Shown: positions 11,508 to 64,000, numbered from the stretch's first letter. The stretch: DNA of 64,000 nt from Dehalococcoidia bacterium (GCA_034429715.1 DAOUFR010000112.1:3242-67241), one strand, 5' to 3'. Notes: a model not told the origin generated them from the letters alone. Translations and numbers: made by a program.

Positions 11508-11519
11508 GGAAGAATCAAA

Positions 11520-12551: not shown

Positions 12552-12574
12552 AAAAGTATATTAAGAGGTGAGAG

Positions 12575-13627: not shown

Positions 13628-13654
13628 CCATATTAATAATTACGGAGGTTTGTT

Positions 13655-14710: not shown

Positions 14711-14740
14711 ATAAAAACCAACGAGTTTATGGAGGTTACA

Positions 14741-37302: not shown

Positions 37303-37405
37303 CTGTCAACCACCTTTGTGCTTACGCTGTTTCCAGCACATAGTTTTATTCAAGCCTGAATCAGGGCTATATTAGCTGCTGCATAAACTGATGTAAAGCG
37401 CAGTT

Positions 37406-40746: not shown

Positions 40747-40775
40747 TAGACAAATTATACAAATATTGTATAATT
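40747..40775 (+). promoter_or_regulatory. Sigma70-type promoter with an embedded perfect palindrome, and a candidate operator, upstream of the ssuA-like ABC operon.
   Basis: TAGACA, a 16-nt spacer, then TATAAT. The palindrome AATTATACAA-ATA-TTGTATAATT (40753-40775) overlaps the -10. A near-identical copy lies upstream of dsrA. Confidence 0.5.
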
Positions 40776-41823: not shown

Positions 41824-41866
41824 GGCCACGCGTCCTTTACGACTAATTTCGATCCTCCTGTTCCTG

Positions 41867-45847: not shown

Positions 45848-46351
45848 ATGGAACTCTGTAGTCTGCTCGAAAAGAAAAAACCGATCATTCTTAAGAATTG
45901 GGTCGCGGCAATCCTTGGCACCTATCCCGACGATGTTGGCGCATTCTTCAAAGATGAGATGGACATGTTCGCCAACCCTGTTGGTCACACCATCATGACC
46001 AATGCTGAAAATATACTGGAAGGACTTATCAGCGGTGAGGATGCGCACACGCAATCTGTCTATATAGAGAGGATCATCCGCATTCGCGCTGTGCAGAATT
46101 TCACCACTGTCCAGGCAGTATCCTTCATCAACAGCTTAAAAACAGCAATAATCGATCAGCTTGAATCGGAGATAAGCAGGCGCAATCTCCGGGATGAATG
46201 GGATGAGTTACAGGTAACCGTGGACAGTCTTGCCCCCCTGGCTTTGGGGATATACGCAAAAACTCAGGAGAGAATTGAGCATATCCGCAGGAAAGAGATC
46301 GAGAACAACGAGAAGTTCCTGATGAGACTGATGGGAAGTCGAAATCCATGA
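45848..46351 (+). CDS. Conserved hypothetical protein immediately upstream of dsrM. Its position corresponds to dsrT in other dsrMKJOP loci.
   Basis: 167-aa soluble helical protein. Its stop overlaps the dsrM start by 4 nt. Confidence 0.45.
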   Translation: MELCSLLEKKKPIILKNWVAAILGTYPDDVGAFFKDEMDMFANPVGHTIMTNAENILEGLISGEDAHTQSVYIERIIRIRAVQNFTTVQAVSFINSLKTAIIDQLESEISRRNLRDEWDELQVTVDSLAPLALGIYAKTQERIEHIRRKEIENNEKFLMRLMGSRNP

Positions 46352-47379: not shown

Positions 47380-49000
47380 GTTAAACAGGCCCGAAGAGAC
47401 GGCCAGCATCGATTACCATCCTCCCCACCGGAACTGGATGGACCCGTCCGTTGAATTCACAAAGGGTTCCTACTGCTATGCAGCACCTCTCAAGAACCAG
47501 GAGCAATTAGAACTGCCCAATCCACGCCAGTGGAATCCGCTGGATCCTGACTGGAAACTGCCCCCGGACTATAAACGGATTATTCTAAACGGTATGAAAG
47601 AGCGTCTGGACAAATACCGTTCCTGGAAATTATTTCTTGATATTTGCGTGCGCTGTGGAGCCTGCTCCGATAAGTGCCACTATTTCATCGGGTCGGGTGA
47701 TCCCAAAAACATGCCGGTCATGAGGGCTGAATTGTTGCGCTCGGTATACCGCCGGTATTTCACCATCGGGGGCAGGCTCCTGGGTAAGCTGGCCGGCGCC
47801 AGGGACCTGAACGAGCAGATCATTAAGGAGTGGTATTACTACTTCTATCAGTGTTCGGAGTGCCGGCGCTGCTCCGTCTTCTGTCCTTACGGCATCGATA
47901 CGTGCGAGATCACCATGATGGGACGCGAGCTTCTGAACCTGGTAGGCTGCACCACCGAATGGGTGGTCGGACCGGCGTCCAATTCATTCCGTACGGGCAA
48001 TCATGTGGGTATACCCCCGCATGCCATGAAACAAAGCCTTGAATCGGCGCAGGATGATATTAAGACCATCACCGGCATTGAAGTGGATGTACCCATTAAT
48101 AAAAAAGGCGCCGAGATCCTTTTTGTCACCCCGTCAGCCGATTTCTTCGCCAGCCCGGCCTGGTACACGCTGATGGGCTACCTCATGCTGTTCCACGAGA
48201 TCGGGCTGGATTATACGTTCAGCACCTATGCCTCAGAGGGAGGAAATTTCGGACTTTTCCACTCGTCCGAGCTGGCCAAAAGCCTTAACGCAAAAATATA
48301 CGCTGAAGCCGAGCGGCTGAAGGTAAAATGGGTGTTGGGAGGAGAATGCGGCCATATGTGGAGAGTTATACATCAATACATGGATACCTTCAACGGCCCG
48401 CCGTCGTTTCTCGAGGAGCCGGTCTCGCCCGTAACCGGTACTAAATTCGATAACGCCGGATCGACTAAAATGGTCCATATCTGCGAGTTCACCGCAGACC
48501 TGATACACTATGGCAAGCTGAAGCTGGACCCCGGGCGCAATGACAAGTGGAAAGTGACCTACCACGATTCCTGTAACCCGGCTCGGGCCATGGGCCTATT
48601 CGAGGAGCCCCGCTATATCATCAACCACACCTGCAACCATTTTTACGAGATGCCGGAGAATACCATCAGGGAGCGCACTTTCTGCTGCGGCAGCGGAGCC
48701 GGCCTTGGACCCGATGAGAACCTGGAGGTGCGGTTACGCGGCGGTTACCCGCGTGCCAACGCAGTACAGTATGTGCAAGAAAAACACGGCGTCAATCTAT
48801 TGGCCTGCATCTGCGCCATAGACAAAGCTTCGTTCCCGCCTCTACTGGAATACTGGGTGCCCGGCGTGGAAACGGCCGGTGTGCATGAACTGCTTGGCAA
48901 CGCACTCATCATGCAAGGCGAAAAACAGAGGGAAACAGATTTGAGGGGTGAGACTCTAACAGCAAACACATCTTCAGAAGGCGGCCGGGACAGTGTATGA
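47366..49000 (+). CDS. dsrK: DsrK, the HdrD-like catalytic Fe-S subunit with CCG domains.
   Basis: Ferredoxin-type CVRCGACSDKC and CSECRRCSVFCPYG, plus C-terminal Cys-rich CCG motifs (CCGSGAG). It overlaps dsrM by 14 nt. Confidence 0.85.
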   Translation: MMADKLNRPEETASIDYHPPHRNWMDPSVEFTKGSYCYAAPLKNQEQLELPNPRQWNPLDPDWKLPPDYKRIILNGMKERLDKYRSWKLFLDICVRCGACSDKCHYFIGSGDPKNMPVMRAELLRSVYRRYFTIGGRLLGKLAGARDLNEQIIKEWYYYFYQCSECRRCSVFCPYGIDTCEITMMGRELLNLVGCTTEWVVGPASNSFRTGNHVGIPPHAMKQSLESAQDDIKTITGIEVDVPINKKGAEILFVTPSADFFASPAWYTLMGYLMLFHEIGLDYTFSTYASEGGNFGLFHSSELAKSLNAKIYAEAERLKVKWVLGGECGHMWRVIHQYMDTFNGPPSFLEEPVSPVTGTKFDNAGSTKMVHICEFTADLIHYGKLKLDPGRNDKWKVTYHDSCNPARAMGLFEEPRYIINHTCNHFYEMPENTIRERTFCCGSGAGLGPDENLEVRLRGGYPRANAVQYVQEKHGVNLLACICAIDKASFPPLLEYWVPGVETAGVHELLGNALIMQGEKQRETDLRGETLTANTSSEGGRDSV

Positions 49001-49394
49001 TAAAGGAAAGATAATCGGCGGCCTGGCCATTTTCCTTTGTCTGACCAGCTTCCCCGCCTGGTATATGGCTGCCAGCGGAAAGGCTGATTACAGCCCGGAC
49101 CCGGTGCTGCCTGTCAGCGAGAACCAGTGTGTGGAATCTGCACAATATATGAAAGAGTATCACATGCAGCTTATGCAGCAGTGGCGGGACCAGTCGGTAA
49201 GGCAGGGCGATAACACTTATATTTCCAGTGACAACCGCACATTCGACATCAACCTGACGGGCACCTGCTTCAAATGCCACACCAACAAGGCCGATTTCTG
49301 CGACCGCTGTCATAATTATACAGGCACAGCTCCCAACTGCTGGGATTGCCATAACATACCTCCGGCCAGTGCGCCGCCGCAGGTGACGAAATGA
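48993..49394 (+). CDS. dsrJ: DsrJ, a periplasmic trihaem cytochrome c.
   Basis: 133 aa with a signal anchor and three CxxCH motifs (CFKCH, CDRCH, CWDCH). It overlaps dsrK by 8 nt and dsrO by 4 nt. Confidence 0.8.
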   Translation: MYDKGKIIGGLAIFLCLTSFPAWYMAASGKADYSPDPVLPVSENQCVESAQYMKEYHMQLMQQWRDQSVRQGDNTYISSDNRTFDINLTGTCFKCHTNKADFCDRCHNYTGTAPNCWDCHNIPPASAPPQVTK

Positions 49395-50155
49395 ATATCG
49401 ACCGCCGCTCTTTTCTCAAACTGGCAGCTCTCGGCCTGCTTGCCATAGCTGCCAAACCTGCCATCGACTTCATCTCAAAGCCGTCTGCGGCCAGGGCTCT
49501 CGACGGACCGTTTTCCGGCAAACGTCTGGCTATGGCTGTAGACCTCAAGGCCTGCACTGCCGGAGACGGCTGCGTTGACTGCATTGCCGCGTGCCACCGG
49601 GTACACAACGTCCCCGACATAGGCAATATCAAAGAGGAGGTCAAATGGCTGTGGGAGGTCGACTACAAGCAGGCTTTCCCTGATCAGGAGAACGGATTTG
49701 TCAGTGAACCGTTGCTGGACAGCAGGGTGCTGGTACTGTGTAACCACTGCGACAACCCGCCCTGCGTCAAAGTGTGCCCAACGCAGGCGACCTGGAAGAG
49801 GGAAGACGGCATAGTTATGATGGACTACCACCGCTGCATCGGTTGCCGCTATTGCATGGCGGCATGCCCCTATGGCTCCCGCAGCTTCAACTGGCGCGAT
49901 CCGCGCCCTTATATCGATATCATCGAGCAGAGCTACCCCACCCGTACCAGAGGCGTGGTCGAGAAGTGCAACTTCTGCGAGGAGCGACTATCAGATGGAT
50001 TGCAGCCTGCCTGCGTGGAAGCTTGCAGCAGCGGGGCATTGAAATTCGGAGACCTGAATCAGGGCACAGATTTGTACAACCTGATTTCATCGCAATTCAA
50101 CCTGCGGCGCAAGGCCGAGCTGGGTACGCGGCCGCAGGTCTATTATTTGCTGTAG
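49391..50155 (+). CDS. dsrO: DsrO, a periplasmic Tat-exported 4x[4Fe-4S] ferredoxin-like subunit.
   Basis: Twin-arginine signal RRSFLKLAALGLLAIAA. There are multiple Cys clusters (CNHCDNPPCVKVCP, CIGCRYCMAACP). Confidence 0.85.
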   Translation: MNIDRRSFLKLAALGLLAIAAKPAIDFISKPSAARALDGPFSGKRLAMAVDLKACTAGDGCVDCIAACHRVHNVPDIGNIKEEVKWLWEVDYKQAFPDQENGFVSEPLLDSRVLVLCNHCDNPPCVKVCPTQATWKREDGIVMMDYHRCIGCRYCMAACPYGSRSFNWRDPRPYIDIIEQSYPTRTRGVVEKCNFCEERLSDGLQPACVEACSSGALKFGDLNQGTDLYNLISSQFNLRRKAELGTRPQVYYLL

Positions 50156-50163
50156 GTTTCACA

Positions 50164-51318
50164 TTGATTGAGAACATTTTCAGAGGCGGAAAGACATACT
50201 GGCTGCTGGTGAGCGGCCTGCTCGTGCTTATGGCGGCAGGGCTGGCAGCCTATCTCGAGCAGTGGAATATCGGTCTGGCGGTGACCGGTTTGAGCAGGGA
50301 TGTTTCCTGGGGCCTGTACCTTGCCAACTTTACCTTCTTCGTTGGTATAGCCGCCTCCGCCGTCATGATTGTCATCCCTTACTATCTGCATAACACACGG
50401 GAATTCCGCCGCATACTTATACTGGGAGAGTTCATGGCCGTAGCGGCCTGCCTGGTGGCCATTACTTTCATACTGGTGGACCTGGGCCAGCCGGCCAGGG
50501 TACTTAATATCATTCTTTATCCCTCACCCGGTTCCATTATTTTCTGGGATGTTGTGGTGCTCTCGGTCTACCTGCTGCTCAACATCATCCTCGGCTGGGT
50601 GGCGCTGGATGCCGAGTACAAAGAGGTCGCTCCGCCGGCCTGGTTAAAGCCAGTTGCAATCATATCCGTAGTCTGGGCTATCAGCATTCACACCGTCACC
50701 GCATTCATATACGCCGGGTTGGCAGCACGCGCTTTCTGGCTGACCGCCCTGCTGGCGCCCCGCTTCCTGGCCTCGGCTTTCGCCTCCGGACCCGCCCTCC
50801 TGATATTATTGGCCCTGGCCATGAAGAAGTGGGGCGGCTTCGACCCGGGTGACCAGTCCCTGGACAAGGTGGCCAAGATCGTCACGTACGCCATTATCAT
50901 CACCGTCTTCTTCCTGCTGCTGGAGATCTTCACGGTTTTCTACAGCCAAGAGCCGGACGCTGTGTCACACTTCCAGTACCTGCTATTTGGATTGGACAAT
51001 CATTACGGACTCGTACCATGGCTATGGACATCGGTCATTCTGGCCTGCGCCGCCATTATCCTGATGGTCATACCCTCTATGCGAAAAAATCAGCTCACAC
51101 TTGCGTTGGCCTGTGCAGCTGTTTTCATCTCCATCTGGATCGATAAAGGCCTGGGCCTGATCGTGCCGGGTTTTATTCCGTCACCTCTGGGAGACATTAC
51201 CGAATACACCCCCACCTTGCTCGAAACACTAATAACTATTGGGGTATGGTCGATGGGCGGTTTAATACTGACTCTGCTGCTCAAGGTGGTGCTGGGTGTC
51301 AGACAGAGACAGCGCTGA
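50164..51318 (+). CDS. dsrP: DsrP, a NrfD/PsrC-like integral membrane quinone-interacting subunit.
   Basis: Polytopic membrane protein. The listed ORF 49774..51318 overlaps dsrO in another frame. The real start is most likely the TTG at 50164, just after the dsrO stop, and no ATG or GTG is available there. Confidence 0.7.
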   Translation: MIENIFRGGKTYWLLVSGLLVLMAAGLAAYLEQWNIGLAVTGLSRDVSWGLYLANFTFFVGIAASAVMIVIPYYLHNTREFRRILILGEFMAVAACLVAITFILVDLGQPARVLNIILYPSPGSIIFWDVVVLSVYLLLNIILGWVALDAEYKEVAPPAWLKPVAIISVVWAISIHTVTAFIYAGLAARAFWLTALLAPRFLASAFASGPALLILLALAMKKWGGFDPGDQSLDKVAKIVTYAIIITVFFLLLEIFTVFYSQEPDAVSHFQYLLFGLDNHYGLVPWLWTSVILACAAIILMVIPSMRKNQLTLALACAAVFISIWIDKGLGLIVPGFIPSPLGDITEYTPTLLETLITIGVWSMGGLILTLLLKVVLGVRQRQR

Positions 51319-51942: not shown

Positions 51943-52770
51943 TCACATTGCAGCGTAACTGTGCAGTCCCCCGAAGAACAAATTGCCGAAAAATGTCAGG
52001 AGCACTGCCAGGAAGCCGGCTACCAGGAACCAGGCGCTGCGTGAGTCCCTCCAGCCAAATATCCACCTCGTGAGCAAATAAAGTGCGTAAATCAACCAGG
52101 TCACCAGCGCGGCGGTCTCCTTAGGGTCCCAGGACCAGTAGCTGCCCCAGGCGATTTTTGCCCATATGGAGCCGAGGACTATCACCACTGTCAGGAAGCA
52201 AAAACCGATCAGTGAGGAGCGATAGCCCAGCCTGTCGAGAATAAGCGGTGAGGGCATGAAGGAAGCCGCATATCTCTGTCCTGTCAGAAAGAGCGCAGCG
52301 CAGGCAAATCCCAGCGCAAATAGACCGTAAGCAATAATAGCGCAGGATACGTGAAGCGGCAGCAGCCAGGTCTGGTTCAATATCGGGGAGAGCGGCTGAT
52401 GCTGGACAGGCAACGTGAACGCATAGATCAGCATAGCGAGAGTTATCAGCGCGCCTGCGGCGCTTACTATATCGTTTCTCTGCCTCCACCTGAAAATCAG
52501 CACAACCGTCAGCACACCCCAGCCGAAAGACATCGAGAACTCGAACATATCTGTAGCGGGGATATGTCCGGCCTGGATAGCATGCATAACCAGGGAAACA
52601 GTGAGCGCCAGCCAGGCGACCAACATAACAGGCAGGGAATAACGGGAAACTGCCAGGTCCAGCGGGCTTTTATTAACATAAATGGAGATGAATCCCCAGA
52701 TATACAGAATTAACGCCAGTTGCAGGGCAACCAGCGTGGTCACGAACATGAGGATTTCGATCTGGCCCAT
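51943..52770 (-). CDS. ccsA: Cytochrome c biogenesis protein CcsA/ResC (System II haem handling).
   Basis: The WGSYWSWDPKET WWD-domain motif and conserved His-containing TM segments are present. Confidence 0.8.
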   Translation of the reverse strand: MGQIEILMFVTTLVALQLALILYIWGFISIYVNKSPLDLAVSRYSLPVMLVAWLALTVSLVMHAIQAGHIPATDMFEFSMSFGWGVLTVVLIFRWRQRNDIVSAAGALITLAMLIYAFTLPVQHQPLSPILNQTWLLPLHVSCAIIAYGLFALGFACAALFLTGQRYAASFMPSPLILDRLGYRSSLIGFCFLTVVIVLGSIWAKIAWGSYWSWDPKETAALVTWLIYALYLLTRWIFGWRDSRSAWFLVAGFLAVLLTFFGNLFFGGLHSYAAM

Positions 52771-52978: not shown

Positions 52979-54280
52979 TTGCAGAAGATTGATTGGTCAT
53001 CGATATGGACCAAAGAGGACTGGTGGGCGTGTTGGCTGGGATTCGTCATCCTGATTCTGGCTATGATCGGCATTCTGCCCGCCGGCCCCAAGTTCGGCAC
53101 ATGGGCAACGATCGATAAAGCTTTCCCTTCAGGCATCGCAACTATCTGGGACACACTGATCCTGTTAGTCATACTGGCCGTCCTGTGTTTGATCGGTCTG
53201 ATCTTTATGAAAAAGGATATCAAGCGTTTTGTCCCCGCCTTCATCGTTATCTTTGCGCTTGCCTGGCTGGCGGTTTTCATCGGTAAGCAGTCCGTCATCA
53301 ATGCCTGGGGTTTGGAATATGTTATCTGGGCTTTGATCTTCGGTCTGCTTATCAGCAATACAGTAGGCATGCCAGGCTGGCTCAAACCGGCCGTACTAAC
53401 CGAATATTATATAAAGATCGGCCTGGTCTGCATGGGCGCAACCATACTTTTCTCCGTTATCCTTAAAGCGGGCGGCGTAGGCATGCTGCAGGCCCTGCTG
53501 GTAGTGGCCGCAGTATGGTTTTTCACTTACTGGCTGGGCAGAAGGTTCGGGATGGCCGAACGCTTCTCCAGCACCATGGCTACAGGTGTCTCGATCTGCG
53601 GTGTATCAGCTTCCATAGCCGCTGGTGGAGCGGTTAAGGGCGATCCCAAAGAAACCAGCTACATCATAGCCTGGCTGCTGGTTGGCGCAGTGATCATGAT
53701 AGTGGTAATGCCCCCCATTGCCAAGGCCGTCAGCATGCCGACCAACATGGCCGGAGCATGGCTGGGCGGCACCATCGATAATACCGGCGCAGTGGTAGCT
53801 GCAGGCGAGGTGATGAAAAGCAAAGCTTCACTCGATGTGGCCGCTCTGGTCAAGATGGCGCAGAATATTTTGATCGGGTTTGCGGCTTTCTTCCTGGCGG
53901 TATGGGCAACGCTGAGGCTGGATAAAAAATCCGTCAGCGAACGGCCGTCTTTCATGGAAATCTGGTACCGCTTCCCTAAATTCATCGTCGGATTCATTAT
54001 CGCCTCTCTAATAGCCTCCTTCTACATCGAGCCTGTCATGGGTACCAAAGCAACAGCAACGATCACCGGCCTGCTGACAACCTACCGCACCTGGTTCTTT
54101 GCACTGTGCTTTGTCTGCATAGGTCTGGAGACTAACTTCAAAGAGCTTCTTTCAGTCGGCGGCGGCAAACCGGCGGCTGTGTACTGGATCGGGCAGACAT
54201 TTAACGTGGTGTGGACCCTGCTCATCGTCTGGATCCTGTGGTCCGGCACCTTTTTCGTTCCCCCCATACTTCCCGATTAA
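52979..54280 (+). CDS. YeiH/UPF0324-family membrane transporter (putative sulfate-exporter family).
   Basis: 433 aa with about 10 TM segments. The GVSICGVSASIAAGGAV motif is characteristic of the YeiH family. Confidence 0.55.
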   Translation: MQKIDWSSIWTKEDWWACWLGFVILILAMIGILPAGPKFGTWATIDKAFPSGIATIWDTLILLVILAVLCLIGLIFMKKDIKRFVPAFIVIFALAWLAVFIGKQSVINAWGLEYVIWALIFGLLISNTVGMPGWLKPAVLTEYYIKIGLVCMGATILFSVILKAGGVGMLQALLVVAAVWFFTYWLGRRFGMAERFSSTMATGVSICGVSASIAAGGAVKGDPKETSYIIAWLLVGAVIMIVVMPPIAKAVSMPTNMAGAWLGGTIDNTGAVVAAGEVMKSKASLDVAALVKMAQNILIGFAAFFLAVWATLRLDKKSVSERPSFMEIWYRFPKFIVGFIIASLIASFYIEPVMGTKATATITGLLTTYRTWFFALCFVCIGLETNFKELLSVGGGKPAAVYWIGQTFNVVWTLLIVWILWSGTFFVPPILPD

Positions 54281-54345
54281 TTCGACCCAATATTGCGGGA
54301 GGAACCGGCAGCGGTTCCTCCCGCAATAAACGTGTTTCAATAGGC

Positions 54346-55443
54346 TTATATCCCCTGCAACTTATAGCACCCCCGGCACTGTGCCGGCGCCTGCGGCATC
54401 GTCCCCGGGACTTCAGTCAGGGACTGTTTCTCCTGTCCCTGTAAATTTCTACGTGCTCCGCGTATCCCGGGCAGAGTCAGCAACGCCATTGATTTGGCTG
54501 CATTTAATCTCGAGTGCTCGATTCGCCGTTCGAACGCCAGCCTGAACTCCTTTGCCTGTGCATTCTCAAGCACTTTACCGAAGCCATCCTGCACATTTCC
54601 ATAGATAAAGCGGTCAACCGGGCCTTCATCACGCCATGATATTATCCTAGGAATCATGCCTTCAACCGGCATACAGAGGTAAACACAGGGAGAGACTTCG
54701 CCCCGCACACTCACAACAACATTGTGCAGCGGATCGTCGCTGCAAACAGGTGAATTGTCACGGGGCTCCAACGGATAAATATGTACCTGGATACCTCTCT
54801 TTTTCCCCCTCATCTCTGCTTCCTTGACTATGTCATATAGACGTGGATCGAACGTCTGGCCGAACGTTTTCAGCGCCTCCGCCTCAGCGTCAGGTATGTA
54901 ATCAAGATTAGGTACGATCACCCTGTCCGCTTTAAGCTCCGCCGCCAGATCAACCAGCTCAGGCAACTCCGCGATGTTCGGTTTCATCATCTGCATGACG
55001 AGATGAATATCCGGGTGAGACCTGGCCGCGCTTAATCCGGCGATATTCTTGCAGATTTGCGCCAGGCTCGATCCTGCTCTTAGAGAATCGTGTGTAGTAG
55101 ACCTGGCTCCCGCCACCGACACCGCTATGAAAGCAAACCCGATCTCGCATATCCGCCGGACGGCGGCGTCATCCAGCAGCACGCCGTTGGTGGTCAGGCT
55201 GACCCTGCCTCCCCTCTCCTTGATTGCCCTTGCCATGCTCCAGATTTCGGGATGGAGCAGCGGCTCCCCCCATCCCTGCAGGTGCACCAGTTCCGCTTTA
55301 CCCAGGTACGGCAAAATCTGCGTAAAAGCATCGCGACTTATATCCCGTGAGATCCATCTGTCTTTAAGCAGCGTGTGCGGGCAAAAGCAGCACCTTAGCT
55401 GGCACCTGGTCGATACCTCTACCTGTATAATGCGAGGCTGCAT
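54346..55443 (-). CDS. Radical SAM protein with a C-terminal SPASM-like Cys-rich extension.
   Basis: N-terminal CQLRCCFC contains CxxxCxxC. It has a GWGEPLL SAM-binding motif and C-terminal extra Cys (CVYLC, CRGC). It lacks the Gly-rich N-terminal motif of canonical GRE activases. Confidence 0.75.
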   Translation of the reverse strand: MQPRIIQVEVSTRCQLRCCFCPHTLLKDRWISRDISRDAFTQILPYLGKAELVHLQGWGEPLLHPEIWSMARAIKERGGRVSLTTNGVLLDDAAVRRICEIGFAFIAVSVAGARSTTHDSLRAGSSLAQICKNIAGLSAARSHPDIHLVMQMMKPNIAELPELVDLAAELKADRVIVPNLDYIPDAEAEALKTFGQTFDPRLYDIVKEAEMRGKKRGIQVHIYPLEPRDNSPVCSDDPLHNVVVSVRGEVSPCVYLCMPVEGMIPRIISWRDEGPVDRFIYGNVQDGFGKVLENAQAKEFRLAFERRIEHSRLNAAKSMALLTLPGIRGARRNLQGQEKQSLTEVPGTMPQAPAQCRGCYKLQGI

Positions 55444-55539
55444 CGGAATTAACCTCTGATCAGTGTATCCAAACGCATTCTAACACAGCATCGTAATCAG
55501 CTGCCTGTTCTTTGACCTGCTCGAAAAACGTATGTTATA

Positions 55540-56187
55540 TTGCGGCCTATGGGCGTGCTGAGAGATATTCTCCCCACAGTGCTGGACACTAAAATAAAAA
55601 ATATCCTGACCGAGGAAAGAGAGGTGGCTAAAGCAGTGGCTACCGATGTAACCGGCACAATGGCTTTAGGGGTCTGGGATTTCGTGCTTCCTCCGCTCTT
55701 TGCAATCAATCTGCTCAAACATCACCGGTCGAAAGAGGCCTTTACACTTAATTTCATGTTTACCAAGAAACTGGCGCTGGAAGCAGCCGGCAATATGTTG
55801 CAATCCGGCCTGACAATAGATAATTGCCTGGCAGAGGTGGAGAAAAAGACATCTTCGATCCTGAGCGCCGACCGGAAAGGCGTGTATTCGGAGAAGGTGC
55901 GTCTGAAACAGATGCAGGAGGTCCGCCTGCTGATCGACCATTATCAAAAGCTGATTATGTCTGAGGGTAAAACCTACCGCGATATGGTTAAGTCAGCATA
56001 TGTGGACCGGGAATCATTCGATACGTTTTTGCACAGGCTCAGTTCAGCCGAAAAAGACGTCAACCGGGCTGCTTTGCAGATAGTGAGCAAAAGCACTGAA
56101 GCAAGGGACTTTGTTGCCAGGATGGAGAAGTCGGTGAACCAGATACGCAACAGGGACCTGGACAATTATTTTCCCCTACCTGAATAA
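55540..56187 (+). CDS. Hypothetical protein.
   Basis: 215-aa ORF between the radical SAM and GRE genes. No recognisable domain. Confidence 0.4.
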   Translation: MRPMGVLRDILPTVLDTKIKNILTEEREVAKAVATDVTGTMALGVWDFVLPPLFAINLLKHHRSKEAFTLNFMFTKKLALEAAGNMLQSGLTIDNCLAEVEKKTSSILSADRKGVYSEKVRLKQMQEVRLLIDHYQKLIMSEGKTYRDMVKSAYVDRESFDTFLHRLSSAEKDVNRAALQIVSKSTEARDFVARMEKSVNQIRNRDLDNYFPLPE

Positions 56188-56191
56188 AGGC

Positions 56192-58792
56192 CTAACACAG
56201 ACAGGAATTGATATCGTGCGCGGTGCGCTGTATCAATTCGTCCTTCATCGATTCTGTCAGGTCGTTGAAATACGCCGAATATCCGGATACGCGCACTACC
56301 AGGCCCCGGTACTGGTCAGGATGATCCTTAGCATCGATGAGTATTGCGGGATCAACCACGTTGAACTGCACCTGCATTCCTCCGCTGGCGAAGAAACCGA
56401 AAATCAACGCTTCTACCAGACGGTTGCGCGAAGGATCCTTGATCAGCGCCAGATCCAGTTTTTCGTTGAGCGCATAGCCATTGGCCACCAGGCTGTTATC
56501 TATGCAGGCTGTTGATGACATCGATGCCGTCGGTCCATTCCTGTCACGGCCGTTGCAGGGCGATATCCCGTTGGCCAGCGGCTGCCCGGCCCGACGGCCG
56601 CCGGGCAATGCGCCTGTACGCGCACCGAAACCCTGATGTGTAGTCATGGACCAGAATCCCGGGTAATATTTCCCTCCGCGCGGGTTGTTGTATCGCGTCA
56701 CCAGATCAGTGAAAATGCCGGAGACCAAACGGGCGTAGTAGTTAGACCTTTCCTCGTTTTCGCCGTATTTTTGTACCTTGTTTGAGATAATCGCATTCAG
56801 CTCCGGATGGCCTGCAAAATCGTCATCCACAGCCCTGACCAATTCTTCCAGAGACAGCCTCCCCTCATTAAATACGAGCTGCTCTATAGCAGTCAGAGCA
56901 TCCGCCGTATCGGCCAGTCCCACACCCTGGCAGCCGGTGGAGTTATACCTGGCACCGCCCGCATTGATCTCCATGCCTTTGTCTATACAGCCTTCCACAA
57001 CGGTGGATAGAAATAGAGTGGGACGATGTGCCGCGTGTGTCTGCTCGATAGCATTGTTGCCCTCCGTTGCGCGCCTTATCATGTTATGAAGCTGTATTTT
57101 AAAAGCGCCGACAACGGCTTCCATGTCACCCATCGCTTTGATATCACCGGTCTGCGGGCCAAACTGCAGGCCATTACACTTACCTTTATGTAAAGCCAGA
57201 TGCAGGGCTATAGGAACATTGGTAAAAATCGCCCCGGCTGCCGGGAAGCTCTTCCCTGGCACGCCCCATTCCACACAGCCAACGATGGAATAATCCTCAG
57301 CGTCCTCTTTATCGATGCCCGACTTCTCCAGCGCCGCAGGTATCTGGTCATCATTGAAAAAAGCCGGAAGGCCGCCGCCTTTTTTAAGCACTTCGCAGCA
57401 AAGGTCGGTGAATTCGACGGGAGTATCCTGATTGATCCTGACATGGAAGTTCGGTTGCCTGAGCCTGACCTGGTCATAGGCCTGCAGAAACAGGAATGAC
57501 AGCTCATTAACGCCGTCGCTGCCGTCGGCCGTACGCCCTCCCAGAGTTATGCCGGAGGCCGAAGACAGGCCGCTGAAATATTCTGTTGCGCGGTCGAAGA
57601 AAAGCGGCAGCAGCTCGCCCGCTTTAGCTATGAAACACCCCAGCAGTTCACCCGCCTGAGTACGGTTGAGCCTGCCCGCTTCGATATCGCGCTTATAGTA
57701 GGGGAAAAGGTACTGGTCCATGCGTCCGAAAGAGATGCCGTGCTGGAAGTTCTCGTAATGCAGCATGACATGGGTGATAAAAACGCTTTGCAGCGCCTCG
57801 TAAAAAGTCTCGGCCGGCTCTGCGGGCACCCTGTTAAATATCTCCGCTAATCTCAGCAATTCCTGTCTTCGAACTTCGCTCTCTGTCCCAGCAGCCTCGC
57901 GCTCGAGGAATTTGCTCCAGCGCTTACCGTAATCGGCGGCAGCCTCGGCACAGACCAGGGCTGCTTCATAAAAACGCTTTATTTGCTCTAACCGCCCACG
58001 CACGGCCGCATCGCTGCAGGCCTCTATGTCCGATTTCACCCCTTCCAACCGCTCGCGTATCTGCCGGGCTATGCCGTTGAATCCCAGCCTGAGCACGGTG
58101 GGATAATCCGGTGTAACATGCGAGACTCCCGAGAACTGCGTCAGGATAAAATATCTCCCCTCCAGCATCGTATTAAACAGGCCGGGATCGCTGCTCAAGA
58201 GAGGCGTCAGCGCCAGCACTGAACGGTTAAACCAGAACGGGAAAATGACCGTCTCAAGTTCCTCAATTTGAGCCGGCTCGATGTCCATGGGGTTTTGCCT
58301 GCGCCCGGATATGCCTCTTATCTCCGGTAACATGAGCAATCCGCCCAGGTCGGGATGGATGGGAGCGCCCACACGCCAGGCCGATGGATTTCCCGCGATC
58401 AACTCGCGGTCATATACCTTCAGTTCCATATTTTCCAATATGTATCTAAAAGCTTCGGCATAGCGTATGACAGTATCGCCCTGCGAAACATTGCGCCTCT
58501 TGAGCAGCAGGGAATTGATAAAGTTGTTAGCAGCCACCTGCCATCTCTTCTGGGGGATAGATCCGGCTGATTTCTCCAGGCTCCTGCGGTAAAAGCGATA
58601 TTGAATTGAGGATAGCAGATCATCCAGGATATCCCGCCGAGTATGTCTGCGAAAATAATCGGTCAGCAGGGAGGCCTTCTGCGTGCAAACATGATAGGGC
58701 GAGTTGAGGATATCGTCACGCAACTTCTTCAACCGCGGGAGCGCTTCCAGCGAGTCTTTGGACACAACTACCGCGGATCCCGGTTCATCCAT
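56192..58792 (-). CDS. Glycyl radical enzyme (PFL-like fold) of the 1,2-eliminase/lyase class. Substrate unknown. It is a candidate organosulfonate C-S lyase (sulfite-releasing), on the basis of its neighbours.
   Basis: 866 aa. The C-terminal glycyl-radical motif RVSGYSAYF is present. The active-site loop GCVEWG gives thiyl Cys plus Glu, the pattern of the CutC/glycerol-dehydratase/HypD/IslA eliminases. Confidence 0.85.
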   Translation of the reverse strand: MDEPGSAVVVSKDSLEALPRLKKLRDDILNSPYHVCTQKASLLTDYFRRHTRRDILDDLLSSIQYRFYRRSLEKSAGSIPQKRWQVAANNFINSLLLKRRNVSQGDTVIRYAEAFRYILENMELKVYDRELIAGNPSAWRVGAPIHPDLGGLLMLPEIRGISGRRQNPMDIEPAQIEELETVIFPFWFNRSVLALTPLLSSDPGLFNTMLEGRYFILTQFSGVSHVTPDYPTVLRLGFNGIARQIRERLEGVKSDIEACSDAAVRGRLEQIKRFYEAALVCAEAAADYGKRWSKFLEREAAGTESEVRRQELLRLAEIFNRVPAEPAETFYEALQSVFITHVMLHYENFQHGISFGRMDQYLFPYYKRDIEAGRLNRTQAGELLGCFIAKAGELLPLFFDRATEYFSGLSSASGITLGGRTADGSDGVNELSFLFLQAYDQVRLRQPNFHVRINQDTPVEFTDLCCEVLKKGGGLPAFFNDDQIPAALEKSGIDKEDAEDYSIVGCVEWGVPGKSFPAAGAIFTNVPIALHLALHKGKCNGLQFGPQTGDIKAMGDMEAVVGAFKIQLHNMIRRATEGNNAIEQTHAAHRPTLFLSTVVEGCIDKGMEINAGGARYNSTGCQGVGLADTADALTAIEQLVFNEGRLSLEELVRAVDDDFAGHPELNAIISNKVQKYGENEERSNYYARLVSGIFTDLVTRYNNPRGGKYYPGFWSMTTHQGFGARTGALPGGRRAGQPLANGISPCNGRDRNGPTASMSSTACIDNSLVANGYALNEKLDLALIKDPSRNRLVEALIFGFFASGGMQVQFNVVDPAILIDAKDHPDQYRGLVVRVSGYSAYFNDLTESMKDELIQRTAHDINSCLC

Positions 58793-58878
58793 AGAATGAT
58801 TTCCCCCTGTCTTAATCCACTGATAAAATTATATTTGGCCGACCGGATTTATTGAAATACGCAGCTTTATTATACCAG

Positions 58879-58907
58879 TTTACAAATTATACAAATAATG
58901 TATAATT
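58879..58907 (+). promoter_or_regulatory. Sigma70-type promoter with an embedded palindrome (one mismatch) upstream of dsrA, in the divergent GRE/dsrA intergenic region.
   Basis: TTTACA, a 16-nt spacer, then TATAAT. The spacer AATTATACAAATAATG is 15 of 16 identical to the spacer at 40753-40768. The flanking TTTAA is also conserved. Confidence 0.5.
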
Positions 58908-59010
58908 TAACTGTCGATAAATGCGGTGGGGAGCGGGCATGATTATGCCTGCAAATGGTATTATTTTAGTATCAGACTCGGGCGGATTAAACAACCAGGA
59001 GGTGCAGTAA

Positions 59011-60180
59011 ATGGCGGACAGAGACACACCTTTAATCAACAACCTCGAGGGCGGGCCCTGGCCCAGCTACATAAAAGAGATCAAGCGTGCCGGCAAGAAG
59101 AATGCTGCTGCCAATGATCTGCTGGGCGTGCAGGAGCTTTCCTTTAAGGACAAGATCACCCACTGGAAACACGGCGGCATAGTAGGCGTGACGGGCTACG
59201 GCTCGGGGGTCATCGGCAGGTACATAGATGCCCCTGAGAAATTCCCCGCAGTCGAGATGTTCCACACTATGCGCATCAACCAGCCGGCCGGTTGGTTTTA
59301 TACAACCGATGCCCTGCGCAAAATCTGCGATATCTGGGAGAAGCACGGCAGCGGCCTGACCAATTTTCACGGATCTACGGGAGACGTCATCCTCCTGGGC
59401 ACCACGACACAGCACCTGCAGCCCTGCTTCGACGAGTTGATCGATGCCGGTTTCGACCTGGGCGGCTCGGGTTCGGCGCTGCGCACCATCAGCTGCTGTG
59501 TCGGCCCCGCCCGCTGTGAGTACTCATGCATCGATACGCTGGATATCTGCAGCAACCTGACGCAGGAATTTCAGGATGAGATACACCGCCCGCGCTGGCC
59601 TTATAAATTCAAGATCAAGATATCGGGATGCCCCAACGACGGCGTTGCTGCCATAGCCCGCGCAGACTTCACCATCATCGGAACTTGGCGCGATTCGCTG
59701 CGCATCGATCAGGACGAGGTCCGCAGGTATGTTAAGAACGGCCTGGATATCAGGGGCATCGTCACTGACAAATGCCCGACCAAAGCATTGGCCTGGGATG
59801 AGAAGGGGCAAAAACTTAATCTGAGGGCAGATGATTGCGTACGCTGCATGCACTGCATCAACAAGATGCCCAGGGCGCTCAGACCCGGTCTGGAACGGGG
59901 GGCAACCATATTGATCGGCGGAAAGGCCCCCATTATCAAGGGCGCTTACCTCTCCTGGGTGCTGGTCCCCTTCATGAAGATGGAGCCGCCCTACGATGAG
60001 GCCAAGGAGCTGCTGCGCAAGATCTGGGAATGGTGGGATGAGAACGGACGCTCACGCGAGCGTGTCGCCGAACTGATCGAGAGAATGGGCCTCAAGACCT
60101 TCCTGCGCGCCGTTGACCTCAAACCGCTTCCGCAGATGGTCTATAAGCCCAGGGCCAATCCGTACGTATTCTTCGATTAA
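59011..60180 (+). CDS. dsrA: Dissimilatory sulfite reductase alpha subunit.
   Basis: N-terminal [11 protein letters not shown], then the sirohaem/Fe-S Cys region [17 protein letters not shown], then the ferredoxin insert CPTKA...CVRCMHC. GGAGGTG RBS. It is followed by dsrB. Confidence 0.9.
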
Positions 60181-60200
60181 ATATATTGAAGGAGAGAGAA

Positions 60201-61265
60201 ATGGGAAAAAGCGACATCGGGCCTCCAAGCTATAAAAAGATGCTTCCGGCAGTTATCGAGAAGAATTACGGAAAGTGGAAGTATCATGAAATACTCAAGC
60301 CGGGCGTGCTCAGGCACGTATCCGAGAGCGGCGACGAAGTCTGGACCGTACGCGCAGGATCGCCACGCCTGGTCAGCATTGATTTCATCCGCGATATCTG
60401 CGATATAGCCGATAAATACTGCGACGGCAAGCTGCGTTTCACCAGCCGCTCCAATGTTGAGTTCATGACGCCTAAAAAAGAAAACGTTGAACCTATTATC
60501 GCGGCAGTACAAAAAATGGGCTTACCGGTGGGCGGCACGGGTAAGGCCATATCCAATATAGTGCACACGCAGGGCTGGGCGCATTGCCACAGCGCTGCCA
60601 CCGACTCCTCCGGCCTGGTTAAAGCCATCATGGATGAGTTATATCCTTATTTCACCAGCATGAAGCTGCCGGCCAAGTTGAGGGTTGCGTTGGCCTGCTG
60701 CATCAACATGTGCGGCGCCGTGCACTGCTCCGACATAGCCATCGTGGGCATACATACCAAACCGCCCAAGGTGGACAACAGCAAGGTGGCCGCCGTCTGC
60801 GAGATACCGACTACCATGGCCTCCTGTCCCACCGGCGCCATACGCAAGAGCCCCGATCCCAACATTAAGGGGCTGGTAGTCAACGAAGAGAAATGCATGT
60901 ACTGCGGCAACTGTTTCACGGTCTGCCCGGCTATGCCGCTGGCCGATGCCGAGGGAGATGGCGTGGCCATCTATGTTGGCGGCAAAGTCTCCAATGCCCG
61001 CCATGCGCCCATGTTCTCACGTCTGGCCATCCCCTACCTGCCCAATAATCCGCCGCGCTGGCCCGAGGCGGTGAGCGCCATCAAGAATATCGTAGAAATC
61101 TATGCCAAACATGCTCTCCCCGACGAAAGAATGGGAGAGTGGATCGACCGCGTCGGCTGGGAGAGCTTCTTCAAACTTACCGGTATACCCTTTACCGAGT
61201 ACCATATAGATGATTTCACACACGGTGTAGATACCTACCGCACCACCACGCAGTTCCGCTGGTAG
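60201..61265 (+). CDS. dsrB: Dissimilatory sulfite reductase beta subunit.
   Basis: Ferredoxin domain [12 protein letters not shown] and sirohaem-binding Cys. ATG 60201 is preferred over the TTG at 60186 because of the GGAGAGAG RBS spacing. Confidence 0.9.
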
Positions 61266-61278: not shown

Positions 61279-61479
61279 ATGACAGAAGGAGTTAGCGAGG
61301 AACTAAAAGAGAAAGTTTTAAAATACCTGGGCACGGTCAGCAAGGCCAAGAACCGCGACGTGGCGCGCGCAGTGGAAGTCGAGAAAGCCCTGGTGGATAA
61401 GACTATTTCTGAATTGGCCAAGGAAAACAAGATCGAGTATATCTACCTGGGAACCTCATATATACAGCTCAAGCAGTAG
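61279..61479 (+). CDS. dsrD: DsrD, a small winged-helix protein of dsr operons.
   Basis: 66 aa, basic and helical, with YLG...KAKNRDVARA and IEYIYLGTSYIQL. It sits directly after dsrB. Confidence 0.8.
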   Translation: MTEGVSEELKEKVLKYLGTVSKAKNRDVARAVEVEKALVDKTISELAKENKIEYIYLGTSYIQLKQ

Positions 61480-61492: not shown

Positions 61493-62926
61493 ATGCAGAC
61501 AGCGCGCCTGATGATAGCCGCCCCGCAGGGACGCTCCGGCAAGACTGCCGTGGCCATAGGCCTGTGCGCCTCCCTGAGGGAGCGTGGTTTGAAGATAAAG
61601 CCTTTCAAGAAAGGTCCCGATTATATAGACCCCTCCTGGCTCTCGGCGGCTGCCGGCATCCCCTGTAGCAATCTCGACCTCTTCATGTTCGATCCCTCCG
61701 CATTGCTGAGAAGCTTCCGTGAGGGCTGTGAAAGGGCCGACCTGGCGCTGATTGAGGCATCGATGGGTCTCTATGACAGCCCCCTGGATGACGGTGAAGG
61801 CAGTTCAGCCTGGCTGGCGCGCGAACTTCAGGTACCCGTAGTAATGATCGTCAATTGCTCCCGCATGACGCGCAGCGCGGCAGCTATGGTCAGCGGCTAC
61901 CTCAATTTTGAGCCGGCTACGCCCATCGCCGGTGTGATATTAAACTACGTGGGCAATCCCAGGCACGAGCGCACCATCGTCAAAGCCATTGATCAGTACT
62001 GCGGCATACCCGTGCTGGGCGCGCTTCCCAGGGATGACCGCCTGGCGATACGTGAGCGGCATCTCGGCATCGTCCCCTTACAGGAACAGGCCGAGGCCGC
62101 CACTATGATCGACCGTATAGGAAGCTCCGTCAGCCAATACGTAGATATCGATCGCATACTGGGCATCGCACGAGGATCTGAGAGATCGATGCGCCCCGCT
62201 CGCGGTGACAACGGCAACCACATCATTGCGAGTAACGCAGCTACAAGTCAATCTCGCAGGATTGAAGTTAAAATTGGCGTCCTGGCGGACAGGGCTTTCA
62301 GTTTTTACTATCCCGAGAACCTCGAAGCGCTGCAACGAAACGGGGCTCAACTGGTTTACATCGATTCATTCGGGGACAGGCACCTGCCGGCAGTTGATGC
62401 CGTCTATATCGGCGGGGGCTTCCCCGAGCTTTATGCCTCGCAGCTTGAGTCTAATAGTAGTCTGCGTCGGGATATTAAAGCCGGCGTGGAATCCGGATTG
62501 CCGGTCTACGCGGAGTGTGCAGGACTGATGTACCTCTGCCGTTCACTGCTCAAGACAGGCAAGGCCTACGACATGTGCGGCGTGATACCCGCGGACGTCG
62601 CCGTCGAGAAAAAGCCGCAGGGACATGGCTATGTCTCGGTCGAAGTCACAGGACAAAATCCCTTTTTCCCGGCGGGCACGCAGCTCAGGGGCCACGAGTT
62701 CCACTATTCCAGGCTGGTCAACATGGGCGACCTGCACTGCGCCTACCGTATAATCCGGGGCAACGGGATCGACGGTATAAATGACGGCTTTATTTATAAG
62801 AACGTGCTGGCCTCTTACACCCACCTGCATGCCCTCGGAGCGCCCTGCTGGGCGCAAAATTTCGTAAAGCTGGCGGCCGCACGGAAAAACGCAGACAAAA
62901 GTATCACAGTTAAAACCGGAGGATAA
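61493..62926 (+). CDS. dsrN: DsrN, a cobyrinic acid a,c-diamide synthase (CbiA)-like sirohaem amidase.
   Basis: N-terminal P-loop GRSGKT (CobQ/CobB/MinD-type ATPase) and a C-terminal glutamine amidotransferase domain (CAGLMYLC). Confidence 0.8.
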   Translation: MQTARLMIAAPQGRSGKTAVAIGLCASLRERGLKIKPFKKGPDYIDPSWLSAAAGIPCSNLDLFMFDPSALLRSFREGCERADLALIEASMGLYDSPLDDGEGSSAWLARELQVPVVMIVNCSRMTRSAAAMVSGYLNFEPATPIAGVILNYVGNPRHERTIVKAIDQYCGIPVLGALPRDDRLAIRERHLGIVPLQEQAEAATMIDRIGSSVSQYVDIDRILGIARGSERSMRPARGDNGNHIIASNAATSQSRRIEVKIGVLADRAFSFYYPENLEALQRNGAQLVYIDSFGDRHLPAVDAVYIGGGFPELYASQLESNSSLRRDIKAGVESGLPVYAECAGLMYLCRSLLKTGKAYDMCGVIPADVAVEKKPQGHGYVSVEVTGQNPFFPAGTQLRGHEFHYSRLVNMGDLHCAYRIIRGNGIDGINDGFIYKNVLASYTHLHALGAPCWAQNFVKLAAARKNADKSITVKTGG

Positions 62927-63099: not shown

Positions 63100-63417
63100 A
63101 TGCCTAAAGTAACACTTGGCGGAAAGGAACTCGAGATAGATGAAGACGGCTTCATACAGGAGCCCGAAAAATGGGACAAGGCCGTAGCCGAAGATATTGC
63201 AAAAACAGAGGAAGCTTATCCCATGAGCGAGGACCACTGGAAGCTGGTGAATTACCTGCGCAATTACTTCCTCGAGTTCGAAATAGCTCCGCCCATCAGG
63301 ATGGTCACCAAGCAGACCGGCTTTGACCTCAAGACCATATACAAACTTTTCCCGGGCGGACCGGCCAAGGGCGCCTGTAAAGTGGCAGGGCTGCCCAAAC
63401 CCACCGGCTGTGTATAG
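63100..63417 (+). CDS. dsrC: DsrC, the sulfur-carrier protein with a C-terminal redox-active Cys pair.
   Basis: 105 aa. The C-terminus CKVAGLPKPTGCV carries the two invariant cysteines spaced by 10 residues. A helix-turn-helix region precedes it. Confidence 0.9.
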   Translation: MPKVTLGGKELEIDEDGFIQEPEKWDKAVAEDIAKTEEAYPMSEDHWKLVNYLRNYFLEFEIAPPIRMVTKQTGFDLKTIYKLFPGGPAKGACKVAGLPKPTGCV

Positions 63418-63428: not shown

Positions 63429-64000
63429 AATGTGGTTATTGCTGCTGACCTACATCTGCCTTTTAATCTTCATCGCCGGATTAACCTGGAGAATATATAA
63501 ATACGCTTCGCTCCCGGTACACCTGCGTTGGGAGCTGTACCCGGTAGCCCATGAAATCGGCAGGCCATATGGAGGGTCGTACCTCGAGGAAGAGGATTGG
63601 TGGCGCCGGCCACGTAAAATTAACCTGTTGGGCGAATCAACTGTATTTCTTCGGGAGATTGTTTTCTTTCGAGAGTATTTTTACAGCAACCGGAGATTCT
63701 GGAGCTTCGTATATCCCTTCCACCTCGGATTGTTTCTGCTGGTGGCCTGGGTAGTAATGCTCCTGGCAGGATCAATACTCACACTGAACGGATTGAGTAT
63801 TTCCTCAACATCACCTTATTTCGGGGTTGCGCTTGTTTACTACCTAACTCTCATATCCGGTGTCGCCGCCTTTATACTGGGCATCTTCGGTACTATCGGG
63901 CTACTGATTAAGCGGTCTTACGACGAAGACCTTAGAAAATACTCGGCGCCCATCGATTACTTCAATCTTACAGGTATATTGCTCGTTTTCCTGACCGGCC
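63429..64000 (+). CDS. NarI/DsrM-like membrane cytochrome b, truncated at the 3' end by the window edge. It is a possible second DsrM-type paralog.
   Basis: Open frame from ATG 63429 to the window end, so it is not in the ORF track. The TM helices with RRFWSFVYPFHLGLFLL parallel the dsrM motif RWLWLGGLAFHWSLFII. Confidence 0.5.

Follow-up and report, generated by a model that had tools for sequence, protein, structure and literature searches.

Glycyl radical enzymes (GREs) that act as eliminases or isomerases are defined by a Cys-x-Glu (CXE) motif within the Cys loop, which is common to both chemistries (PMC13450708). In glycerol dehydratase (GDH), His164 is described as the residue that protonates the departing hydroxyl (PMC13450708), and in all three solved C-S lyases the sulfonate is anchored by an Arg-Gln-Arg set, represented in IslA by Arg189, Gln193 and Arg678 (Imrich et al. 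review, PMC13450708). Here we describe a GRE encoded on a 64,000-nucleotide stretch of DNA from a Dehalococcoidia bacterium (GCA_034429715.1, DAOUFR010000112.1:3242-67241; hereafter the window, with positions counted from its first letter), where the gene is divergent from the sulfite-respiration operon dsrABDNC. In marine and freshwater sediments the Dehalococcoidia rank with the most abundant bacteria, and part of the class carries dsrAB. In these dsr-bearing members the source of sulfite is unresolved (Wasmund et al., 2016, PMC4959651); the related dsr-bearing cell DEH-C11 is without sat and apr, and the authors who described it found no sulfite source (PMC4959651). An original prediction, made from the window alone, had proposed the GRE as a candidate sulfite-releasing organosulfonate lyase feeding Dsr.

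Judged by its active-site residues, the window GRE is not a C-S lyase of the IslA/IseG/HpsG type. We tentatively favour, with somewhat less than even confidence, a 1,2-eliminase of an uncharacterised PFL2 clade that most likely breaks a C-O bond in a larger, neutral hydroxylated compound. The genomic context that had suggested sulfite release is nevertheless real and can be extended (island synteny, an SsuA-like importer and, in related operons, TauE); it is at the level of the enzyme, where the sulfonate-binding residues are missing, that the proposal is not supported.

The enzyme and its family placement

The gene (56192-58792, minus strand) is an intact open reading frame (ORF) of 866 codons with an ATG start; the longer interval to 59010 first assigned to it consists of this ORF and the 218-bp intergenic region up to dsrA. 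The 866-residue product matches the Pfam domains PFL-like (PF02901, 547 bits) and Gly_radical (PF01228, 91 bits), and IVGC506VE508 and RVSG837Y stand at the expected places, marking Cys506, Glu508 and Gly837 as the predicted catalytic residues; the size and the RVSGY and GCVE motifs reported in the original prediction were thus confirmed. An AlphaFold2 model built from 57 homologs (predicted local distance difference test, pLDDT, 90.4; predicted template modelling score, pTM, 0.92) matches GRE structures in Foldseek with template modelling (TM) scores of 0.83-0.87. With barrel and glycine-radical domains, an RVxG motif and this fold match, the protein belongs to the GRE (PFL-like) superfamily, and its motif GC506VE508, invariant in 57 clade members, assigns it by sequence to the CXE class of eliminases and isomerases. 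Two features are specific to the clade. Relative to other PFL2-type GREs, about 45 residues forming a helical insertion (within residues 50-100) follow the N-terminal helix, and the pocket loop 407-410, just ahead of Ser-Ser-Ala-Ser-Gly, is the sole internal low-confidence stretch of the model.

The window GRE passes no curated NCBIfam equivalog model. The five equivalogs compared have cut-offs of 1000-1109 bits, and the scores were 468 bits for HypD (NF043068, cut-off 1100), 455 for HpfG, 450 for PflD, 440 for CutC (TIGR04394, cut-off 1050) and 426 for HpsG (NF048011, cut-off 1000), those for HpfG and HpsG being less than half of the respective cut-offs. The PFL2/glycerol dehydratase subfamily model TIGR01774 was just missed, at 660.4 bits against a cut-off of 678.2. 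Among solved structures, the best phmmer match was A. fulgidus PFL2 (AfPFL2, 516 bits), followed by GDH (468), CutC (440), propanediol dehydratase (PD, 438) and the propanediol dehydratase 9RCO (425), with the C-S lyases HpsG (335), IslA (334) and IseG (315) lowest among the eliminases. The Foldseek order agrees with that of the sequences, placing propanediol and glycerol dehydratases and AfPFL2 first and HpsG, IslA and IseG at ranks 38-44. Among eliminases, the C-S lyases are therefore the most remote from the window GRE in both sequence and fold, and this distance, together with the low HpsG and HpfG scores, counts against the sulfite-releasing lyase of the original prediction.

In a neighbour-joining tree, bootstrap support was 200/200 for each of three groups: the clade as a whole, its Dehalococcoidia subclade, and Dehalococcoidia together with Desulfobacterota. 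The tree was built without full IslA, HpsG and HpfG, which were compared instead by block alignment, residue list, phmmer, Foldseek and hidden Markov model scores. With an identity of 30-37% to every tree reference, the window GRE is, by this topology, part of its own monophyletic, uncharacterised clade; it does not group firmly with choline lyase or with the dehydratases of glycerol and propanediol, a placement that had been named beforehand as telling against sulfonate cleavage. The topology also suggests that Dehalococcoidia gained the GRE from a Desulfobacterota-like source. A literature search found no account of this clade, of a GRE beside dsrAB, or of GREs in Enhygromyxa or Plesiocystis.

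AfPFL2 (PDB 2F3O) is the nearest solved relative by sequence (36.7% identity) and has the lowest root-mean-square deviation to the model (2.0 A). It has in common with the window GRE the CXE motif, the beta1 His, Gly712 and Met716, but differs in its beta2 residues (Gln-Ala, as opposed to His-Gly here), in its beta3 loop (Ala-Thr-Asn-Gln-Ala, as opposed to Ser-Ser-Ala-Ser-Gly), in an Asp at the position of Gly520, and in having neither Trp509 nor Trp714. The function of AfPFL2 is unknown (PMC13450708), and it therefore suggests no substrate. The B12-independent GDH and 1,2-propanediol dehydratases (1R8W, 5I2A/5I2G, 9RCO/9RCP) are the top Foldseek matches (TM 0.87), with the Cys-x-Glu motif, the equivalent of His164 (His225) and GDH His281 matched by His351; they are, however, only 33-34% identical and do not have the N-terminal insertion of about 45 residues, and beside the window GRE we find none of the activase, dha/pdu-type alcohol or aldehyde dehydrogenase or microcompartment genes of such systems.

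The active-site pocket

The pocket was mapped by residue-level phmmer alignments to GDH, CutC, PD, 9RCO and AfPFL2, by the block alignment that Dawson et al. published as Fig. S3, read with the structural equivalences given in the same paper (PMC8473560), and by a multiple sequence alignment adding E. coli PflD and YbiW. The resulting signature comprises Ser221, His225, His351, Gly352, Ser410-Ser-Ala-Ser-Gly414, Trp509, Gly520, Gly712, Trp714 and Met716. Every one of these residues is invariant or nearly so across the 57 clade members (50-100% identity), and the pocket differs from that of every aligned reference GRE. Because the pocket is invariant across the clade, a single substrate or substrate class is likely for the whole of it.

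It is here that the sulfonate lyase reading meets an obstacle. The Arg-Gln-Arg anchor, which every one of the three solved C-S lyases has and which is indispensable to IslA, is replaced by Ser221, His225 and Gly712; inspection of the sulfonate-binding residues of IslA, IseG and HpsG, the check suggested along with the original prediction, thus went against it, and the role of sulfite supplier is not supported by the pocket. The likeness to IslA, IseG and HpsG (7KQ3, 5YMR, 6LON) extends to the GRE fold, the CXE motif, which is compatible with C-S lyase chemistry, and the setting beside a Dsr system in a sulfite respirer; it does not extend to the anchor, and no activase adjoins the window GRE. 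The residue at the beta1 site, which varies with the leaving group, also speaks against C-S cleavage. It is His in 7/7 C-O-cleaving or dehydratase-like references (GDH, PD, 9RCO, PflD, YbiW, AfPFL2 and HypD, where it is His160); CutC, a C-N lyase, has Asp there, the C-S lyases have Gln, and the window GRE has His225.

The GDH catalytic pair His164/Glu435, for which protonation of the leaving OH and deprotonation of C1-OH have been proposed, aligns with His225/Glu508. The small polar pocket of the glycerol and propanediol dehydratases, on the other hand, is not found: Ser282, Tyr339, Asp447, Tyr640 and Ser642 of GDH correspond to Gly352, Ala412, Gly520, Trp714 and Met716, Trp509 directly follows the catalytic Glu508, and the beta3 loop 410-414 reads Ser-Ser-Ala-Ser-Gly. 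On these substitutions, the predicted pocket is larger and more hydrophobic than that of GDH, is without cationic residues, and is unlike that of any characterised GRE.

The same residues bear on a further alternative, in which the enzyme performs some other GRE chemistry on a hydroxylated substrate, either as a C-N lyase or as a ring-opening isomerase of the HplG/YbiW/PflD type, and its link to dsr is positional only. The CXE motif would allow this, being common to eliminases and isomerases; YbiW has Ser221, His225, His351 and Gly520 in common with the clade, and the PflD score is close to those of HypD and HpfG. Yet identity to YbiW and PflD is only 31-32%, the remainder of the pocket differs, and neighbour clustering recovers no conserved sugar-phosphate, phosphotransferase system or amino-acid catabolic partner genes. 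As for C-N cleavage, CutC resembles the window GRE in its CXE eliminase fold but is 30.5% identical to it, and neither its Asp216 nor its aromatic cage is present: His225 stands at Asp216, Ala412 stands at Phe395, and the Thr502/Tyr506 region is not kept. We regard such chemistries as improbable.

Relatives outside Dehalococcoidia

Database searches returned about 27 proteins at least 71% identical to the window GRE, all of them uncultured, and a far larger set at 43-60% identity; a scan with one genome per species gave 79 loci (single loci from this and the other searches are cited below by L numbers). The relatives with at least 71% identity are all in Dehalococcoidia metagenome-assembled genomes (MAGs). 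The group at 43-60% is made up of Thermodesulfobacteriota (Desulfobacteraceae and others), Schekmanbacteria, Binatia, some gammaproteobacterial MAGs and Myxococcota, the last with three cultured members: Enhygromyxa salina, Plesiocystis pacifica and a strain of the Nannocystaceae.

When the neighbours at 44 loci outside Dehalococcoidia were clustered, a canonical activase was found beside the GRE in 25 (for example in L004, TIGR02494, 276 bits); in seven further Myxococcota loci, tblastn matches indicate that the downstream ORF is probably an activase as well. An extended short-chain dehydrogenase/reductase (SDR), most like OleD/HpnA/3-beta-HSD and with a match to the fatty-acyl-reductase-type NAD_binding_4, is present in 17 loci, a classical SDR in 12, a TetR regulator in eight, and an additional, unannotated upstream cluster in five. 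Genes for a long-chain acyl-CoA ligase and for a sigma-54 regulator (XylR_N/V4R) accompany the Desulfobacteraceae GREs. In L087, from Desulfobacterota, the neighbours are ADC, acyl-CoA dehydrogenase, BKACE, MBOAT, GDSL lipase, an amino-acid permease and two SDRs; TauE directly follows the GRE there, and no activase adjoins it (L087, 9001-12433). A class-3 lipase gene (Lipase_3) follows the GRE-activase pair in E. salina (L032, 13502-14365), as does a WS/DGAT wax-ester synthase gene, apparently in the same operon, in P. pacifica (L057, 12636-15184). In these two obligate aerobic marine myxobacteria, then, an oxygen-sensitive GRE is found with lipid-metabolism partners.

These settings weigh against sulfite release. 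No dsr genes adjoin the GRE in any of the 44 loci outside Dehalococcoidia, and in Myxococcota, Binatia and Schekmanbacteria, which have the same pocket and include aerobic marine Myxococcota, no dsr, sulfite-handling or sulfonate-transport genes were found near it. Relatives without dsr and with an identical pocket have reductase, lipid and TetR partners and no transporter. Pointing the other way, a TauE-family permease gene lies downstream of the GRE in six distinct sister-clade Desulfobacterota operons, four of which also encode a multi-pass membrane protein of about 460 residues (461-463). In E. gilvus, the TauE encoded in the HpfG cluster was given a probable role in sulfonate export (PMC11489063), although its family, PF01925, is a broad one.

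The dsr island and the place of the GRE

Across the 218-bp intergenic region, the GRE gene faces dsrA (59011-60180, plus strand; TIGR02064, 554 bits) and dsrB (60186-61265, plus strand; TIGR02066, 514 bits), both above their equivalog cut-offs. They are followed on the same strand by a 66-residue ORF in the position of DsrD (61279-61479, no Pfam match), a dsrN-like (CobB-like) a,c-diamide synthase gene (61493-62926) and dsrC (63100-63417). The complete dsrMKJOP set (46348-51318, plus strand) passes all five equivalog cut-offs and is preceded by a gene for an RsbRD_N-domain protein (45848-46351, plus strand). Further upstream lies a NitT/TauT-type ATP-binding cassette (ABC) importer (40825-43353, plus strand; binding protein 40825-41823, permease 41867-42592, ATPase 42589-43353), whose binding protein scores 156.6 bits with SsuA_fam (cut-off 163.5) and has TauA and SsuA as its best PDB relatives. 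Divergence from dsrAB, a nearby DsrMKJOP complex, a YeiH-family transporter and a NitT/TauT-type importer had all been reported in the original prediction, and all were recovered. In the rest of the window, none of sat, apr, xsc and suyAB was found.

The association is stable within the lineage. In 10/10 Dehalococcoidia species-genome loci the GRE is divergent from dsrA at about 180-220 bp, and about 30 Dehalococcoidia loci keep it between the cytochrome c biogenesis gene ccsB and the dsrA promoter, with intact ORFs in those examined. Two arrangements occur. In the first, the GRE directly adjoins ccsB on the same strand (7-70 bp); in the second, that of the window, three genes intervene, encoding a HYxxLL protein, a radical S-adenosylmethionine (SAM)/SPASM protein and YeiH. 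Deeper-branching L090 and L091 (66-67% identity) have the same island, with a strand reading ECH-(DUF1214/1254)-GRE-ccsB, where ECH stands for enoyl-CoA hydratase, divergent from TetR-dsrABDN-C. The order ABC importer, RsbRD_N, dsrMKJOP is kept in L018 and L090, where the importer runs straight into dsrMKJOP; in L091, RsbRD_N-dsrMKJOP is present and the sequence ends within the ABC ATPase gene. Besides dsr, ccsB and the ABC importer, the GRE is the only recurrent enzyme gene seen in the island.

As a control, we searched metagenomes with DsrA and checked the gene upstream of dsrA. Where DsrA was at least 84% identical and enough upstream DNA was available, the GRE was present at 196-267 bp in 19/22 loci. 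The remaining three (L108, L104 and L099) have no GRE, ccsB abutting the dsrA promoter with its palindrome intact. GRE-bearing L097 and GRE-less L108 are collinear (82-87% nucleotide identity), L108 lacking precisely the 2.7-kb GRE; the pair L110 (with) and L099 (without) repeats the pattern, the flanks in both closely aligned pairs being 81-87% identical. In about 50 loci whose DsrA was at most 80% identical, no GRE was found upstream of dsrA. From its exact absence in close relatives, the GRE is therefore best described as an accessory cassette in the ccsB leader, and we infer from its position that it is probably co-expressed with the sulfite-respiration island, though dispensable for it.

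The GRE/dsrA regulatory region (58793-59010, 218 bp) contains a strong dsrA promoter-like site, TTTACA-16-TATAAT (58879-58906, 11/12 positions matching), and further conserved TATAAT-like boxes toward the GRE. A perfect palindrome, ATTATACA-N5-TGTATAAT (58886-58906), overlaps the spacer and -10 element of this site; the second copy, also perfect, is flanked by a LarA-like gene on one side and the ABC importer on the other (40754-40774). There are exactly two copies in the window, where 0.32 would be expected even with three mismatches allowed. A block of about 32 nt with the palindrome is the best-conserved part of the intergenic alignment (12 loci); every locus of the lineage with at least 71% identity has the palindrome with no more than one mismatch, as do the GRE-less L099, L104 and L108, and L018 has a second copy upstream of its ABC operon. 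The palindrome is probably a binding site for a dimeric regulator. We considered and rejected the possibility that it is an operator specific to the GRE: since it is kept where the GRE is missing, it belongs to the dsrA/ccsB divergent promoter. The shared palindromic promoter of the original prediction is thus conserved at the GRE/dsrA divergence, and the importer does lie behind the same motif, but the element is a property of the dsrA/ccsB promoter that persists without the GRE. In L090 and L091 a TetR_N/TetR_C_4 regulator gene heads the dsrAB operon (L090, 5925-6840; L091, 5969-6811), and between it and the divergent ECH-GRE-ccsB operon the motif of the window is replaced by other operator-like repeats, palindromes of the GAACAnTGTTC type. 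Orthology of this TetR to the GRE-adjacent TetR of other phyla was not supported (28% identity over 37% of the length). No riboswitch was found in the GRE/dsrA regulatory region with Rfam.

Other features of the window include, on the far side of the GRE, the HYxxLL gene (NF038143; 55540-56187, plus strand), which is convergent with it with 5 bp between the stops, followed by the radical SAM/SPASM gene (54346-55443, minus strand), the YeiH gene (PF03601; 52979-54280, plus strand), and ccsB (51943-52770, minus strand), with a 181-residue ORF without matches between ccsB and dsrPOJKM. The three-gene insertion (52979-56187) occurs in part of the lineage (L006, L013, L036, L096, L098, L106, L107, L111-L113 and L136) and is missing from roughly one in two Dehalococcoidia loci, as it is from every other lineage. 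Within it, YeiH is 94-97% identical across loci, where the adjoining radical SAM protein is 66-92% and the GRE 80-89% identical; this is unusually strong conservation for a putative transporter. A second pair of DsrM-like (Nitrate_red_gam) and DsrK-like genes follows dsrC (window, 63430-63999; L002, 979-3515; L090, 2-1478). Divergent from the ABC importer across the second palindrome is the LarA-like gene (39172-40644, minus strand; LarAH14/15/16, 172 bits; best PDB match 9q2u), a homolog of the nickel-pincer 2-hydroxyacid racemase/isomerase, followed by a pyridine-nucleotide disulfide oxidoreductase gene and an SDR gene (36475-38902, minus strand). If a racemase of 2-hydroxyacids or hydroxysulfonates belonged to this regulon, it would be in keeping with the use of sulfolactate or 2,3-dihydroxypropane-1-sulfonate (DHPS). 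More distant are a 2-oxoacid:ferredoxin oxidoreductase-like pair (POR_N/PFOR_II, TPP_enzyme_C) followed by three tandem paralogs of about 350 residues, in which only a C-terminal 4Fe-4S dicluster domain is recognised (10287-15796), and a transfer-messenger RNA gene (1466-1813, minus strand; 154.8 bits, the sole Rfam match), with the tag peptide ANEAVPVAA given by ARAGORN.

Selection and the activase

Against nine orthologs, the ratio of nonsynonymous to synonymous substitution rates (dN/dS) of the window GRE is 0.09-0.13 at dS of 0.6-1.8, values that indicate strong purifying selection on the gene; its place beside dsrA has outlasted the saturation of synonymous sites. Measured in this way, the gene is functional and selectively maintained.

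No canonical GRE activase was found in the 64-kb window by a CxxxCxxC scan, whose sole match was the SPASM-type radical SAM gene, as the original prediction had noted for the immediate neighbourhood. A tblastn search with two activases of the clade likewise gave no match within 6-10 kb at any of the Dehalococcoidia loci, and none of the best 120 homologs of the L004 activase could be matched to a GRE contig. The radical SAM/SPASM protein has a best NCBIfam score of 115 bits against a cut-off of 380. It was also considered as a non-canonical activase for the clade and was rejected, because it belongs to a variable insertion that is missing from lineages where the canonical activase is present.

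One might argue from the missing activase, and from the clean loss of the GRE in three relatives, that the enzyme is a horizontally acquired hitchhiker, silent or decaying, that cannot be activated and has no function in these genomes. The low dN/dS at saturated dS, the invariance of all catalytic and pocket residues and the intact ORFs in the roughly 30 loci examined make this very improbable; moreover, L087 is likewise without an adjoining activase, so activases can be encoded elsewhere.

Discussion

We return to the C-O eliminase that we tentatively favour. A neutral substrate, larger than glycerol or propanediol, is suggested because His225 occupies the C-O site, no cationic residue is present, and the pocket is widened (Gly352, Ala412, Gly520) and lined by Trp509, Trp714 and Met716. 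The chemistry that we infer would proceed as follows. An activase encoded outside the window would install the radical on Gly837, from which it would move to Cys506; the Cys506 thiyl radical would take a hydrogen from the carbinol carbon of the substrate as Glu508 deprotonates the carbinol hydroxyl, and the neighbouring heteroatom group would depart, aided by His225, with cleavage of the C-O bond and formation of a carbonyl compound. This product may be handled by SDR-type reductases, as in the putative ancestral operon. In Dehalococcoidia the operon partners would have been lost, leaving the GRE as an accessory cassette in the ccsB leader, divergent from dsrA.

Several observations weigh against this interpretation. 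A generic dehydratase role does not explain why two sublineages that differ in their operators stably keep the gene in the dsr island. An SsuA/TauA-like importer belongs to the same island and has the same operator. TauE-family permeases follow the GRE in the six sister-clade operons, and TauE serves sulfonates in a known GRE cluster (PMC11489063). The activase is missing from the window and from the Dehalococcoidia loci. Anions can be bound by hydrogen bonds alone, and a site of this sort could be formed by the Ser-rich loop 410-414 with two His and two Trp. The Arg-Gln-Arg triad, for its part, is known from one related group of C-S lyases only, and its absence therefore leaves room for a convergent sulfonate site.

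The main rival, which we consider unlikely, is the model of the original prediction in modified form: an organosulfonate C-S lyase that releases sulfite and binds the sulfonate at a new site free of arginine. A hydroxysulfonate would enter through the ABC importer; the GRE would take the carbinol hydrogen and eliminate sulfite, with His225 protonating the leaving group; and DsrAB, DsrC and DsrMKJOP would respire the released sulfite. This model accounts for a GRE co-positioned with the dsrA operator in the island of about 30 loci, for an importer behind the same palindrome that is contiguous with dsrMKJOP in L018 and L090, for the TauE and 461-463-residue membrane proteins of sister operons, and for a lineage in which DEH-C11 has no evident source of sulfite. 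It must contend with the lost anchor, the beta1 histidine, the remoteness from IslA, IseG and HpsG, the dsr-free settings of the same pocket, and three close relatives that keep dsr and the operator without the GRE.

An extension of this model, which we hold to be more doubtful still, is that the clade represents a second, independently evolved sulfite-releasing GRE C-S lyase, possibly acting on a larger or lipid-derived hydroxysulfonate and constituting, in Dehalococcoidia, the missing sulfite source of a Dsr system without sulfate activation. In such an arginine-free class the sulfonate would be held by the Ser410-Ser-Ala-Ser-Gly414 loop, His225/His351 and Trp509/Trp714. With a larger or lipid-derived substrate of this kind, the lipid-related neighbours and the TauE permeases would no longer be at odds.

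The cultured hosts E. salina and P. pacifica, together with the natural polymorphism of GRE-bearing and GRE-less islands, make both C-O and C-S cleavage testable. Were sulfite release borne out, it would explain sulfite respiration in this lineage and would reveal a new structural route to the cleavage of C-S bonds by radicals. If the enzyme is instead the C-O eliminase that we tentatively favour, it would represent a widespread and wholly uncharacterised GRE clade, with a unique pocket and probably a lipid-like substrate.

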